64,000 nt of DNA. Source: a virus. The position numbers were made by a program, and so were the translations under genes. The DNA is taken from IMG/VR virus record IMGVR_UViG_3300042534_000747, one strand, 5' to 3'. This document shows, in pieces, positions 54,157-63,188 of this stretch; position 1 is the first letter of the stretch; each line of letters begins with the position of its first letter. The notes under the pieces are model-generated. The model was not told where the DNA came from. It did not search any database and saw only the letters and a list, made by a program, of their open reading frames with translations.

Positions 54157-54420
54157 TTATTTTGCTTTTTTAAATGTAAATGTTTTTCCTGAAATTTCAA
54201 TTAATCTCCATCCTATTAAGAATAATACCATACTTGCAATCCATAATGCAATGAATGCATATCCCATTGATTCAGATGTGATTTCACCAAAGAAAAGTGT
54301 AGCAATTGAAGTAGAAAGAATATCAGAAGGAAAGGGATTTACCCATGAAATAGCACAAAATACTATAAAGTATCCTGCTTTAGCATATTGAGTTTTTGTA
54401 AATTTTTTATTTAAATTCAT
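54157..54420 (-). CDS. Small membrane protein (2 TM)
   Basis: Two hydrophobic segments, basic termini. Confidence 0.65.
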   Translation of the reverse strand: MNLNKKFTKTQYAKAGYFIVFCAISWVNPFPSDILSTSIATLFFGEITSESMGYAFIALWIASMVLFLIGWRLIEISGKTFTFKKAK

Positions 54421-54455
54421 ATTATCATTTCAAAATAATTAGGGTTAATCCCTAA

Positions 54456-54680
54456 TTACTTTTTAAACATACCTTCAACAAATTCTCCACCAATCTGACC
54501 AACTAGAACTACAACAGAAACAATTGCGTATCCTAATGGCTCTGCACTCTCTACAAGACCTGCCATAGAACCTAAAAATAGACCTGCTGCACCTGCAATA
54601 ACTATGATTGCACCCTTTACAACATCTCCTGTACCAATCTTGCCATTTCCATCAAAGTCTACTGATTTACCTTTTGCCAT
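54456..54680 (-). CDS. 74-aa Gly/Ala-rich 2-TM protein (start revised from 54725)
   Basis: AAAGGTGA RBS before MAKGKSVDFDGNGKIGTGD; two hydrophobic helices. Confidence 0.7.
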   Translation of the reverse strand: MAKGKSVDFDGNGKIGTGDVVKGAIIVIAGAAGLFLGSMAGLVESAEPLGYAIVSVVVLVGQIGGEFVEGMFKK

Positions 54681-54742
54681 AATTTTTTCACCTTTTATTT
54701 TTATTTTTTTTGTTATGCATAACATGAAGTTATGATTGTGAT

Positions 54743-54910
54743 TTATTTCATATTGAATGGGTTTACTAATGTTACTATTGAAGTCAAACCACCTAATATG
54801 AATACTAGAGAATACTTAGTATAATCTATTTCAAATACTGCAATTAATAATGTTCCTATACAAAGGACAAGCAATGATTTCAATAAATCTGAACTTTTTA
54901 CATCCACCAT
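54743..54910 (-). CDS. 55-aa 2-TM protein missed by the ORF track
   Basis: MVDVKSSDLLKSLLVLCIGTLLIAVFEIDYTKYSLVFILGGLTSIVTLVNPFNMK*, overlapping the upstream stop. Confidence 0.6.
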   Translation of the reverse strand: MVDVKSSDLLKSLLVLCIGTLLIAVFEIDYTKYSLVFILGGLTSIVTLVNPFNMK

Positions 54911-55386
54911 GCACTCATACTTCCTTTCACTGCATTACTCAATTCGCTTTCTATTAAAGTTGTAATATTATCATTGAAATTGTATTTTGTATAAAGCATT
55001 AATAATTTTATTTTATCTAAAATTCCTAATTTACCATTGTCACAAAATGAATCAATTAAATTATTTAATGTTTTAATATCATTTTCATTCGTTTGAATAA
55101 TATAATTGGGATTTTCAGTTGCACCTTCCGTTATACTTGAAGAATTTTCTCTCAGCAATACAATGTATTGTTCTTCTTCTATATAAACTTGTAGGTCAAT
55201 ATGAAAATCTGTAAAATATCCTAAATCTTGGATTTTATTCATATTTAATTCTAATTTTTGCATTTCATCTGATGCATTTGCTGAACATGTAGGAATAAAT
55301 ATCATTAATAAAAATGAAAGTAATAATATTTTTTTAATGTAATACATCATATGCTCTCCTTTTTGTATCTTTTTCATCTGTATCAA
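54898..55386 (-). CDS. Secreted protein, possibly SCP2-like lipid-binding fold
   Basis: Signal peptide; YIVLLRENSSSITEG..NPNYIIQT..DI..L resembles the SCP2 pattern. Confidence 0.4.
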   Translation of the reverse strand: MIQMKKIQKGEHMMYYIKKILLLSFLLMIFIPTCSANASDEMQKLELNMNKIQDLGYFTDFHIDLQVYIEEEQYIVLLRENSSSITEGATENPNYIIQTNENDIKTLNNLIDSFCDNGKLGILDKIKLLMLYTKYNFNDNITTLIESELSNAVKGSMSAWWM

Positions 55387-55999
55387 ACATTATGTAAATG
55401 ACTGTGCCAAATCCAATGAAGCTTAATAACATCATTCCATACGCAATTAAATATGATGATAATACAAATATTGAAATAGTTAAATCTAAACCAAATAAAT
55501 TAATAAATGCATTTGTTATCGATTGACCTAAACTTATAGGATTATCAAAGAATATTAATGAATTTGAACTTGTCAACATTACATCAAGTGCATTTTGACC
55601 ATCTGAACTTACAATTAATGGAACAAATGAAGCAATATTTAAAAATAAAATTACAATAGCCCAAATTCCAATTAATCTTTTTGGATATAACATTACTGCA
55701 ATTATACTAGTTGAACATAAAATCAAAGGAGGTGCTATATAATAAATCCATAATTTTAATGGTTCGTTTGAATAGGCATCCATCACTGTATAACCAGTCA
55801 TAATACCAATGTACATATCTACAAAATTCCATCCAAATAATAATCCTGTTATTGAATGAATCATTTCGTGTAAAATTGTAAGAGTGGTCATTAATAATAT
55901 TACAATGGATACAATCATGGGATAAACAGAACTATCTATTGTTGATTTTGGCTTTTTTTGAAATGATTTTTTATTAAATATCGTTTTTATTTGATTCAT
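55334..55999 (-). CDS. M50-like intramembrane zinc metalloprotease
   Basis: HEMIH inside a TM helix, G.T, IAPP (AGP equivalent), N..SFVP..SDG. Confidence 0.75.
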   Translation of the reverse strand: MNQIKTIFNKKSFQKKPKSTIDSSVYPMIVSIVILLMTTLTILHEMIHSITGLLFGWNFVDMYIGIMTGYTVMDAYSNEPLKLWIYYIAPPLILCSTSIIAVMLYPKRLIGIWAIVILFLNIASFVPLIVSSDGQNALDVMLTSSNSLIFFDNPISLGQSITNAFINLFGLDLTISIFVLSSYLIAYGMMLLSFIGFGTVIYIMFDTDEKDTKRRAYDVLH

Positions 56000-61048: not shown

Positions 61049-61075
61049 CAGTGAATGTAACTCATAGTATATAAA
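61049..61075 (-). promoter_or_regulatory. Promoter of the pilin-signal gene
   Basis: TTTATATA-N18-GTATTGT, same architecture as RNA candidates A/C and the replication operon leader. Confidence 0.65.
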
Positions 61076-61089
61076 GATATAGGGTTTTA

Positions 61090-61288
61090 CGAGATTTGGA
61101 AAATGTTATCAGTAGACATTGCAAAAATTACGAGTTCTCGATAATCTAGACATATAATATGATTTGATGAAAAAATCAAAATAATAAATTTCAAAAAATG
61201 TTAAAAAGAATTTTTGTTAATCATATCGAAATCTCGAAACGATAACAGGATGCTTAAAAGATAAATGTTAATCATATCGAAATCTCGA
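61090..61288. repeat. 23-bp direct repeat pair and CGA-N4-TCG palindromes
   Basis: TGTTAATCATATCGAAATCTCGA at 61215-61237 and 61266-61288; CGAGTTCTCG at 61131-61140; CGAGATTT at 61090. Confidence 0.85.
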
Positions 61289-61301
61289 TAATTGAGTAAC
61301 A

Positions 61302-61877
61302 TTATTTTTGAGAAAATTTTTCAACTTTTACTTTTTTGAGAAAAATTTTGAACTTTTTCATTGATTCTAAAAATGAAAATTTCAAACTTTTTAAGTCAAA
61401 TTCATATTCAATATAATTTGAAAACATCAAAAAACAATTATATAAAATTAAACCATAGCCTAATTCATTGAATCTTGTATGTATTACAAAAACATCATAT
61501 AATATTAAAAATGAACCAATTAATGTAGTAATAATTATAGGAATTAATTGTGTTAGAGGAACAAATTCTTTAACATTTACATCTTTACCCAAAGCAATAT
61601 GATTTATTCCCTTTTTAACAACAGTGATTAAAATTTCTTTTTCTATTAAATTGGTAATAGCATGTCTGATTACACTTTCAGTAAATTCATTTCCAACTTC
61701 AATTTTTATTTTATCATTTATTTCTTTTGTGGTTAATGTTTTATTATCCACTTTTGCATTAGCAACAATATCTACAATTAAGATATGTTGTGGTTTTTTC
61801 ATTATATCGTTTTGTATAGCACGATTTTTTAATGATTGGATTTTCTGATGTTGCTTATAAATATTATTCTGTAACAT
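61302..61877 (-). CDS. Winged-helix DNA-binding domain with two C-terminal TM helices
   Basis: LTTKEI..I...FTESVIRHAITNLIEKEIL + wing; hydrophobic LIPIIITTLIGSFLIL and YGLILYNCFLMF. Confidence 0.65.
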   Translation of the reverse strand: MLQNNIYKQHQKIQSLKNRAIQNDIMKKPQHILIVDIVANAKVDNKTLTTKEINDKIKIEVGNEFTESVIRHAITNLIEKEILITVVKKGINHIALGKDVNVKEFVPLTQLIPIIITTLIGSFLILYDVFVIHTRFNELGYGLILYNCFLMFSNYIEYEFDLKSLKFSFLESMKKFKIFLKKVKVEKFSQK

Positions 61878-61916
61878 TAAAAAAGAAATATATAAAGAAT
61901 GATATAAAGGTTTTGC

Positions 61917-63188
61917 CTAAAATGAATATGCAATGGCAAAAATAAAGAATATCATACTTAAAATAAATGGCAATAGATATGATGAACGTGAGTTATCATA
62001 ATTTTTATGGTATGTAGTTTTATCTATACTATTATATGTAGCATGACCATCGTTATTAAGAGATTTATTTCCTATTCTTGAAATTACTTTATCAGCAAGT
62101 AATTCAGCTTGTTCATTTTCAAATTTGTATTTATTATTTTTAGTTTTTGCTTCTGAAACAAATTTATCAAATCCCTTTTTAACTAAGAACCATGCAATGA
62201 GCATGAAAAATATATAAGTCCATTGATAATCAGGATGCATGATATAAATTAAACTATATACAGTTGTTATAATTCCTGCGTATAATGGATAGTTGGCACT
62301 CATATCCTGTAATCCACCTGATAAAGATGAGGACATATAAATTCCTGCTACTAAATGTGTTATAATATAAACAAACATGAATACCATTATATAGCAAAAT
62401 GCTCCAATTACTAATACATATAATAAATCAAAATTTGTAGCATTTGATATAAAATAAATTCCATTATTTAGATAATCTAATGCTTTTGAATATTCATGGA
62501 ATGGATTGGACATTATCATAGCCATAAAAGCGTTTGGAACTATACCAAGTATTAATGCAATTAATAATTTGAAAGGTGCTAATGTTAATACTAAATCTTT
62601 TAATACATGGTTTGCTTTATTATTTCCACGATAGTGATTTTCTATCATTGTAAAGAATAAATAAAATCCTGATACAAATAAGAAAATTTGCCAAATAGTA
62701 TCTATAAATGAATAAAACAATACTAAAATTTTTAATGATATACTGGATTCATCTATTACAGCACTTTCACTATAAGTTGAAATTACATTAGATGCATGTG
62801 TGAAAAATTTATAGTGTAGTATATACTCTATCGATGTTAATGTTTTGTAAAAGAATGGACTTGTATAAGTGCCAAATGGTAATTCAAATACATATGTTCC
62901 AAATCCTTCAAATCTATTAGGGAAAACAATAGGTAATAGTCCATCTGATATAAAAACAGGTGATAATGAAGTTAATATTCTAACTCCTATTTTTTTAATT
63001 CTACCTGTAAGTAAATATATCATTAGGAATAAAGAACCCATTACAACCCAATAGACTAAAGATGAGCTTGAATCAAATCCTATTCCTTGTGCTATTGTGT
63101 TTAAGAATATATCATCTTTTGTAACAGTTGCATTTATGATAGTTTCATTTACTGCATTTGTTATTTCAAGCGATTCGTTTAAAGTCAT
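61917..63188 (-). CDS. Multi-pass membrane protein of unknown function
   Basis: 423 aa, about 8 hydrophobic segments. Confidence 0.7.
   Translation of the reverse strand: MTLNESLEITNAVNETIINATVTKDDIFLNTIAQGIGFDSSSSLVYWVVMGSLFLMIYLLTGRIKKIGVRILTSLSPVFISDGLLPIVFPNRFEGFGTYVFELPFGTYTSPFFYKTLTSIEYILHYKFFTHASNVISTYSESAVIDESSISLKILVLFYSFIDTIWQIFLFVSGFYLFFTMIENHYRGNNKANHVLKDLVLTLAPFKLLIALILGIVPNAFMAMIMSNPFHEYSKALDYLNNGIYFISNATNFDLLYVLVIGAFCYIMVFMFVYIITHLVAGIYMSSSLSGGLQDMSANYPLYAGIITTVYSLIYIMHPDYQWTYIFFMLIAWFLVKKGFDKFVSEAKTKNNKYKFENEQAELLADKVISRIGNKSLNNDGHATYNSIDKTTYHKNYDNSRSSYLLPFILSMIFFIFAIAYSF

Follow-up and report, generated by a model that had tools for sequence, protein, structure and literature searches.

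We examined a window of 64,000 nucleotides (nt), the whole stretch of the virus record IMGVR_UViG_3300042534_000747 analysed here, whose proteins belong to a 202.5-kb metagenomic contig. Towards its end lies a block of twelve minus-strand open reading frames (ORFs) for membrane-associated proteins, arranged around the gene of a predicted fusogen with the class II, or fusexin, fold. The GC content of the window is about 26%, and no tRNA genes were detected in it. The same DNA is covered by L001, an independent Logan assembly in which position x equals window position 68639 minus x and which continues past the window end; its gene calls move four starts, giving proteins of 386 rather than 408, 179 rather than 184, 150 rather than 162 and 74 rather than 89 amino acids (aa). 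Related loci are numbered from L002 onwards, and G001 is the complete relative IMGVR_UViG_3300042535_000037 (loci L003/L010). The block and the gene convergent with it are laid out as follows.

54157-63188, minus strand: membrane-protein block, 12 consecutive ORFs with no break in strand.
61917..63188, minus strand: 423-aa polytopic membrane protein with about seven transmembrane (TM) helices by its hydrophobicity profile; opens the minus-strand operon.
61302..61877, minus strand: 191-aa protein, a soluble N-terminal half with a conserved helix-turn-helix (HTH)-like motif followed by one or two TM helices.
59805..60965, minus strand: 386-aa surface protein, N-terminally anchored, acidic and beta-rich; conserved in L002 and L005/6.
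59197..59616, minus strand: 139-aa N-terminally anchored beta protein; its gene overlaps the fusogen gene by 8 nt.
57348..59204, minus strand: 618-aa fusexin-fold (class II) fusogen, by predicted structure and topology.
56535..57347, minus strand: 270-aa CPBP/Rce1-like intramembrane protease (Pfam PF02517); abuts the fusogen stop codon.
55996..56535, minus strand: 179-aa N-terminally anchored beta-rich protein, specific to the window genome.
55334..55999, minus strand: 221-aa polytopic membrane protein; carries the pattern H(E/D)..H and N..S..P....SD and is at best S2P/M50-like.
54898..55350, minus strand: 150-aa exported protein; conserved in L002/3 and L005/6.
54743-54910, minus strand: 55-aa small hydrophobic protein with one or two TM helices by its hydrophobicity profile.
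54456-54680, minus strand: 74-aa small hydrophobic protein with one or two TM helices; conserved in relatives.
54157-54420, minus strand: 87-aa small hydrophobic protein with one or two TM helices; conserved in relatives.
53545..54156, plus strand: 203-aa exported protein with a conserved Cys..His..Asp pattern; convergent with the block.

An earlier, sequence-only reading of this DNA had described twelve consecutive minus-strand genes that all encode TM or signal segments, and we find that all 12 ORFs of the block indeed contain at least one strongly hydrophobic 19-residue segment (Kyte-Doolittle). When counting non-overlapping ORFs of at least 60 aa, such a segment is present in 11 of 11 inside the block and in 7 of 76 elsewhere in the window, an enrichment in membrane proteins that far exceeds chance. 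As to the translational coupling it had noted, the seven genes from the 139-aa through the 55-aa protein abut (0 gap) or overlap by 1-17 nt, and the remaining intergenic gaps of the block measure 35-336 nt.

Central to the block is the 618-aa protein, which we modelled with AlphaFold2 from an 8-sequence alignment (A1), obtaining a mean predicted local distance difference test score (pLDDT) of 70. The model comprises a signal peptide, a long all-beta ectodomain (domains I-III), a low-confidence stem and a C-terminal helix. Hydrophobic segments fall at residues 6-24 and 590-608, the latter corresponding to a single C-terminal TM helix followed by a short basic tail, and the signal peptide and C-terminal anchor are present in all full-length homologues. 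The predicted arrangement of beta-rich domains I, II and III is that of class II fusogens, with the anchor C-terminal to domain III, and an extra beta domain is predicted after domain III, at about residues 500-573. Upon searching the PDB with Foldseek, the best match was the haloarchaeal fusexin Fsx1 (7P4L, E 6.8e-14), followed by Chlamydomonas and Arabidopsis HAP2 and then by alphavirus E1, bunyavirus Gc, flavivirus E and EFF-1, and the best 50 rows were all class II fusogens. In an exhaustive structure search, matches over about 300 or more residues were to class II fusogens only (Fsx1, HAP2 and Atlas virus Env), the other rows covering about 90-110 aligned residues of the Ig-like domain III only. 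The structural matches in BFVD were all RNA-virus class II glycoproteins, and a shape search of the ESM Atlas with the model gave matches to CARDB/Ig-like domains only. By predicted fold, the membership of this protein in the fusexin superfamily is well supported, which confirms the fusexin-like label that the sequence-only reading had given it.

At the sequence level, the picture is a different one. An exhaustive HMMER search of 1.84 billion representatives recovered no more than nine relatives, of which seven are full-length sequences with 28-34% identity, and a word-indexed search of 5.8 billion proteins returned the fusogen itself only. There was no match to Pfam (E up to 10), PHROGs or NCBIfam and no match to PDB sequences by phmmer, and the family profile recovered neither 7P4L nor HAP2 among the PDB sequences. 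Conversely, the NCBIfam model of Fsx1 (NF053506) matched none of the eight family members at E up to 10 and nothing in G001, and the HAP2-GCS1 domain model (PF10699) did not match the fusogen at E up to 10. We conclude that the fusogen represents a new sequence family, detectable by structure comparison only. It differs from Fsx1, to which it has no sequence-level match either as 7P4L or as NF053506, in having one C-terminal TM helix where Fsx1 has three (PMC9259645) and in lacking conserved cysteines for disulfides. Fsx1 also carries a fourth globular domain, a beta-sandwich, after domain III, to which the extra domain here may or may not correspond; the structural alignments with 7P4L stop at residue 492-493 of the model. 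In contrast to eukaryotic HAP2/GCS1 (PDB 5MF1, 6E18 and 5OW3), with which identity in structural alignments is about 10%, the window fusogen has no Pfam match and sits in prokaryotic operons. The fusogen has the same fold class as the class II glycoproteins of enveloped RNA viruses, namely alphavirus E1, flavivirus E and bunyavirus Gc, but it is encoded in an archaeal DNA element and not in a polyprotein. Of the 31-mers sampled from the fusogen gene (57348-59204), 35% occur in one sediment metatranscriptome run, a hint of in situ transcription that we do not count as evidence.

Next, we investigated the proteins encoded around the fusogen. A homologue of the 139-aa protein was found by tblastn directly upstream of the fusogen in L002/3, L005/6, L007/8 and L009, and L029 has a 142-aa gene there, matched by position alone. 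The 139-aa protein is thus a candidate fusogen partner, and its small membrane-anchored gene immediately preceding that of the fusogen recalls the order of prM-E or E2-E1, a likeness that reaches as far as a candidate companion only. The functional labels that the sequence-only reading had proposed for the neighbours fared unequally. The CPBP label was borne out: PF02517 matches with 43.4 bits (cut-off 22.4; E 4.1e-11), and of the family motifs EExxxR, FxxxH and HxxxN/D the Glu-Glu pair and both His residues are kept in 4/4 orthologues, two of which also keep the Arg of EExxxR, the others having Thr or Lys; judged from sequence, the CPBP/Rce1 assignment is solid. The M50 label was not supported, as the 221-aa protein reached E 0.33 and 10.7 bits in Pfam, below the cut-off of 27.2, and HExxH occurs in the window copy only, two orthologues having HDPxxH; with orthologues in L002/3 and L007/8 and a conserved downstream N..S..P....SD, it may at best be a divergent S2P-like protein. 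The pilin-type signal of the 386-aa protein likewise lacked support: the matches are sub-threshold (18.9 bits against 25.2 for Pilin_N, PF07790, and 15.9 against 20 for TIGR02537, arch_flag_Nterm), and the motif is confined to the window copy, the L002 and L005 orthologues having plain N-terminal anchors. The 150-aa protein, which had been called an SCP2-like lipid binder, gave no match at all in the family models searched, which leaves that label unsupported. For the 191-aa protein, labelled as winged-HTH in that reading, an HTH-like motif is conserved, but no Pfam family matches it; an L002 orthologue is found by tblastn, a 207-aa gene at the same position in L005 aligns with it, and the motif would be compatible with a DNA-binding role. 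The 423-aa protein has an orthologue in L002/G001 at 35% identity, and no homologue of the 179-aa protein was found by tblastn in the related loci.

The sequence-only reading had pointed to the flanks as the place to look for a VirB4/HerA/FtsK-type ATPase, and such a gene, of the HerA/DUF87 type, is present just past the window end, in a block that diverges from the membrane-protein genes.

63189..63428, between the divergent blocks: AT-rich divergent intergenic region with several TATA-like boxes, read from sequence.
63429..63839, plus strand: 136-aa soluble protein that opens the divergent block; orthologue in L002/G001.
63867..64000, plus strand: first 44 codons of a 413-aa type I membrane protein; the remainder lies past the window end in L001.
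Past the window end, in L001: 392-aa protein with a predicted small beta domain and long coiled coil.
Past the window end, in L001: 249-aa low-complexity protein; its tail is rich in Gly, Asn and Tyr, and its sequence looks mostly helical or of low complexity.
Past the window end, in L001: 460-aa HerA/DUF87 P-loop ATPase.

The intergenic region may act as a promoter, as its TATA-like boxes suggest. The ATPase matches PF01935 (DUF87) at 29 bits against a cut-off of 23.2, with weak matches in the P-loop region to TrwB, TraB and TraC and a match to Pox_A32 at E 0.0073. A Walker A motif, GASGSGKT, and, further on, a hydrophobic run ending in EE as in Walker B are readable in the sequence, and in an alignment of six ATPase sequences G90, S92, G93, G95, K96, T97 and E349-E350 are invariant, whereas A91 and S94 vary. 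In the ESM Atlas, the ten best matches by features (0.96-0.97) were all DUF87, and by structure the protein aligned over its whole length with DUF87/HerA clusters (TM-score 0.62-0.70). It therefore belongs to the FtsK-HerA superfamily as a DUF87/HerA-type member. Its profile gave P-loop noise only against PDB sequences, and no PHROG family matched. The ATPase gene is interrupted by an intein (755-756 aa, Hom_end_hint) in L002:1-663 and in G001:C1:172450-174717, whereas the 460-aa ATPase of the window genome has none; a pattern scan of IMG/VR for the ATPase found no match, probably because the intein splits the G001 copy. The model of the 392-aa protein shows a small beta domain, a long coiled coil and helices at low confidence (pLDDT 54).

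We compared the contexts of the fusogen and ATPase homologues through tblastn of every L001 protein against those loci. In at least five relatives (L002/3, L005/6, L007/8 and L009 by tblastn), the genes that the sequence-only reading had grouped recur alongside the fusogen, overall at 25-45% identity, and the 386-aa, 139-aa, fusogen, CPBP, 221-aa, 150-aa, 74-aa and 87-aa genes are conserved at 24-41%. The ATPase block, with its four genes for the 413-aa, 392-aa and 249-aa proteins and the ATPase, is conserved in L002, L005/6, L013, L014 and L015, with identities of 45-47% for the ATPase, 31-40% for the 392-aa, 33-41% for the 249-aa and 28% for the 413-aa protein. In the loci that reach far enough (L002 and L005/6), both gene blocks occur together with the fusogen. 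The block had been taken for a complete envelope and fusion apparatus; the set is conserved as such, but the delimitation was too narrow, as the conserved unit runs past the window end and includes the 203-aa plus-strand gene, whose orthologue in G001 is co-oriented, at the end of the membrane module. We propose that 18 genes over about 15 kb form a conserved module for transmission, of which the minus-strand block is the membrane half.

The order of these parts varies between relatives. In L005/L006, the ATPase block is inverted with respect to the membrane genes and is still adjacent to them, and an HNH_repeat endonuclease gene stands between the two (L005:4799-6103 and L006:3380-4684), exactly where the orientation of the blocks differs from that in the window, which suggests that inversion or recombination took place here. 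Immediately downstream of the module in the window are an intein-containing class II ribonucleotide reductase (RNR) gene and a degenerate RNR paralogue (48860-53391, minus strand). The RNR adjoins the module in G001 as well as in L005, where it still follows the inverted arrangement, and the paralogue has a G001 homologue; this kept position indicates a larger syntenic unit in which the module and the RNR genes move together. The 203-aa exported protein (53545-54156, plus strand) has a paralogue at 35583-36185 (plus strand), 50% identical over 101 residues, and an orthologue at L003:7756-8340. Both paralogues share the elements C..(F/Y)A, GHAINxFNT and D, which together recall the Cys-His-Asp triad of transglutaminase- or papain-like enzymes, a motif from which an enzyme of this class may be suspected. 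In L005, the position of the 203-aa gene is occupied by a 689-aa Transglut_core protein, with no significant similarity between the two.

We then considered the replicons that carry the module. Elsewhere in the window are genes for a family B DNA polymerase (PolB), RFC-like clamp loader subunits, an ATP-dependent ligase, an XPD-like helicase and Cas4-like and ERCC4 nucleases, besides the intein-containing class II RNR and its degenerate paralogue. The relative G001 measures 183,084 bp, has direct terminal repeats and a CheckV completeness of 100%. Its terminal overlap is 127 bp, a length that is a common maximum k-mer of assemblers, and we therefore take G001 to be a closed circle. G001 and the window are collinear over the ATPase block, the membrane module, the RNR pair and the PolB, RFC, helicase and ligase genes, and 35/87 window ORFs have G001 homologues. 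The GC content of these collinear genomes differs by 10 points (26% in the window and 36.6% in G001), which suggests adaptation within the family to hosts that differ in base composition. For the PolB, the nearest sequences are the polymerases of haloarchaeal tailed viruses (27% identity). An archaeal affinity rests on the archaeal-type replication proteins and, in related contigs, on a PTH2 domain and a PF0610-type zinc ribbon. The source of these genomes is sediment metagenomes, and we regard the carriers as one family of archaeal virus-like elements that are circular, self-replicating and large, at 140-200 kb. Several other features of these genomes were noted. Near the ATPase block, G001:C1:152558-167217 encodes two proteins of about 2,430 aa, the scanned one with Big_9, He_PIG, cadherin-like and DUF2341 domains, and L013:1-5804 encodes proteins of 1,690 and 633 aa with Laminin_G and beta-helix domains; the truncated first ORF of the window (1-1062, minus strand) also has DUF2341. 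These giant proteins may be adhesins of a particle or of the cell. A 1,147-aa ORF at 9068-12511 (plus strand), the sole plus-strand gene in the replication region, has 34% identity in G001 and no Pfam match.

Among the window ORFs of at least 100 aa that were scanned, which are most of them, no capsid, portal or terminase family was found, in agreement with the sequence-only reading, which had seen no HK97 capsid, portal or terminase gene. Six-frame searches of the complete G001 with Pfam models gave no match for an HK97 capsid (PF05065), Terminase_6N (PF03237), portal (PF04860) or a capsid of nucleocytoplasmic large DNA viruses (NCLDV), and no standard head-tail module was detected in this collinear 183-kb relative. 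The same searches found no VirB4 domain (PF03135, CagE_TrbE_VirB) and no tyrosine recombinase or integrase. A 10-bit match of TerL_ATPase (PF03354) in G001 lies inside an SNF2 helicase and was rejected.

When comparing the module with known systems, the closest precedent is that of the haloarchaeal fusexin: Fsx1 genes lie in mobile elements together with XerC/D, HerA, VirB4 and TraG-type genes, fusion-dependent DNA exchange has been proposed for them (PMC9259645), and in 2022 there was no evidence of fusexins in archaeal viruses (Moi et al. 2022, PMC9259645). According to a 2026 meeting report of unpublished work, vesicles that bud from an Fsx1-carrying strain contain the element and transmit it by membrane fusion (PMC13712861). 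In contrast to the Fsx1 elements, the carrier here is circular, measures 183-202 kb and encodes PolB, RFC, ligase and RNR of its own, the complete relative is without a detectable tyrosine recombinase, the GC content is 26-37% and the source is sediment and not hypersaline. The gene content also resembles that of the Pleolipoviridae and haloarchaeal plasmid vesicles, as both combine an anchored spike or fusogen with several small membrane proteins and a single P-loop ATPase and lack a detectable capsid gene. Unlike pleolipoviruses, it shows no sequence similarity to deposited archaeal viruses or PHROG families, and the genomes here are roughly 10-20 times the size of a pleolipovirus genome. 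The pleolipovirus spike fold also differs from the fusexin fold (PMC9259645).

Because a fusogen-bearing envelope set is combined with a DNA-handling ATPase, as has a precedent in the Fsx1 elements, we read the locus as the transmission module of a virus-like replicon. The element probably spreads by membrane fusion rather than in a protein capsid, and our preferred reading, which we hold tentatively, is that the module makes a fusogenic envelope, most likely in the form of capsid-less vesicle-type particles. This reading starts from the fold and topology of the fusogen, from genes that are conserved and linked, and from a genome in which no capsid, terminase or portal gene is detectable. The fusogen would be co-transcribed with its anchored partner, the CPBP protease and the other polytopic, single-pass and small membrane proteins, and the membrane proteins of the module would be inserted into the host membrane, where the maturation or regulation of the envelope proteins could fall to the proteases. 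The element DNA would be brought to the host membrane by the ATPase, possibly together with the HTH-like protein anchored there, and a capsid-less lipid vesicle containing that DNA would bud off. On contact with a recipient, the fusogen would insert into its membrane, fold back as a trimer, merge the bilayers and deliver the genome. Several points weigh against such an account. The particle and fusion steps are deduced from genes, the predicted fusion activity from a modelled fold in which a fusion loop at the tip of domain II has not been located, and the fold of the 392-aa protein from a low-confidence model (pLDDT 54). As Pfam models can miss divergent archaeal capsids, the elements are capsid-less at the sensitivity of family models only. 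No relative of the fusogen or of the ATPase was found in deposited phage and archaeal-virus genomes, in PLSDB plasmids or in 185,579 GTDB species genomes, and no host was identified; a methanogen host has no support in these data. To our knowledge, 180-200 kb also far exceeds any known genome of a vesicle-type (pleomorphic) archaeal virus.

The main rival account is doubtful but deserves serious weight: the fusogen and its membrane companions would sit on the surface of the donor cell, which would fuse with a neighbour or form a cytoplasmic bridge to it with no free particle, and the HerA/DUF87 ATPase would move or resolve DNA across. A 200-kb genome would pass more easily through a fused membrane than be packed in a vesicle. 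The fold and the neighbouring HerA-type ATPase are as in the Fsx1 elements, for which this model was proposed in 2022 (PMC9259645), the ATPase is weakly similar to the TrwB, TraB and TraC transfer ATPases, and giant Ig-domain adhesin-like proteins are encoded near the module in G001 and L013. However, G001 has no VirB4 N-domain, no relaxase or other conjugation family was found among the scanned window ORFs, the replisome is a full one of viral style, G001 is catalogued in IMG/VR, a collection of virus contigs, and the single experimental report on an Fsx1 element describes vesicles (PMC13712861). Vesicles and cell-cell fusion fit the data alike, and both amount to fusion-based transfer. The sequence-only reading had proposed a fusion-based transfer or virion system, and the fold, the ATPase and the conservation speak for it, but the function is deduced and a vesicle or virion and cell-cell fusion are both compatible with it.

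We consider it unlikely that the module serves a membrane-containing virion with an unrecognised protein capsid, whose capsid proteins would be too divergent for the models or encoded elsewhere, with the membrane proteins in the inner or outer virion membrane and the HerA/FtsK-type ATPase as packaging motor, as in PRD1/STIV-type viruses. FtsK-HerA ATPases do package the genomes of membrane-containing icosahedral viruses, the weak Pox_A32 match points the same way, three conserved proteins with unassigned folds flank the ATPase, and the genome size would suit a large capsid. Yet G001 has no NCLDV-type capsid family, the 392-aa protein is not predicted, at low confidence, to be a double jelly-roll, the 249-aa protein looks mostly helical or low-complexity by sequence, and the ATPase is twice the size of the A32 type, resembles cellular or mobile-element DUF87/HerA clusters over its whole length and matches no PHROG. 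Less probable still is a role in remodelling the host surface, for adhesion, superinfection exclusion or host-symbiont contact, with the fusexin-fold protein as an adhesin or structural protein and not a fusogen. The fold is by itself no proof of fusion and no hydrophobic fusion loop was identified in the protein, but all full-length homologues keep the signal peptide and the C-terminal anchor required of a fusogen, and the linkage to a DNA-handling ATPase is tight across divergent genomes.

That archaeal mobile or virus-like elements can carry a fusexin along with a HerA-type ATPase was already known. What is new here is a fusogen family visible by structure only, a defined module of 18 genes and a circular carrier of 140-200 kb with a replisome and no detectable capsid genes. 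The carriers are very large virus-like archaeal replicons of anoxic sediment, which speaks for fusogen-based spread beyond small integrated haloarchaeal elements, and the module offers a candidate route of transmission for a 200-kb genome without a recognisable capsid. It also provides candidate co-factors (the companion protein, the CPBP protease, a second spike-like protein and the HerA ATPase) that can be compared with those of the Fsx1 elements. Through the fusexins, the entry of viruses is tied to the fusion of somatic cells and of gametes, and the site of their first origin is unsettled. On a bolder interpretation, which we regard as somewhat doubtful, these elements would be the largest capsid-less enveloped double-stranded DNA viruses known, with archaeal genomes of 180-200 kb that encode a replisome, leave the cell in vesicles and enter it through a class II fusogen of a second fusexin family. 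If true, this would place fusexins firmly in the archaeal virosphere and would provide material for a 'virus-first' origin of HAP2.

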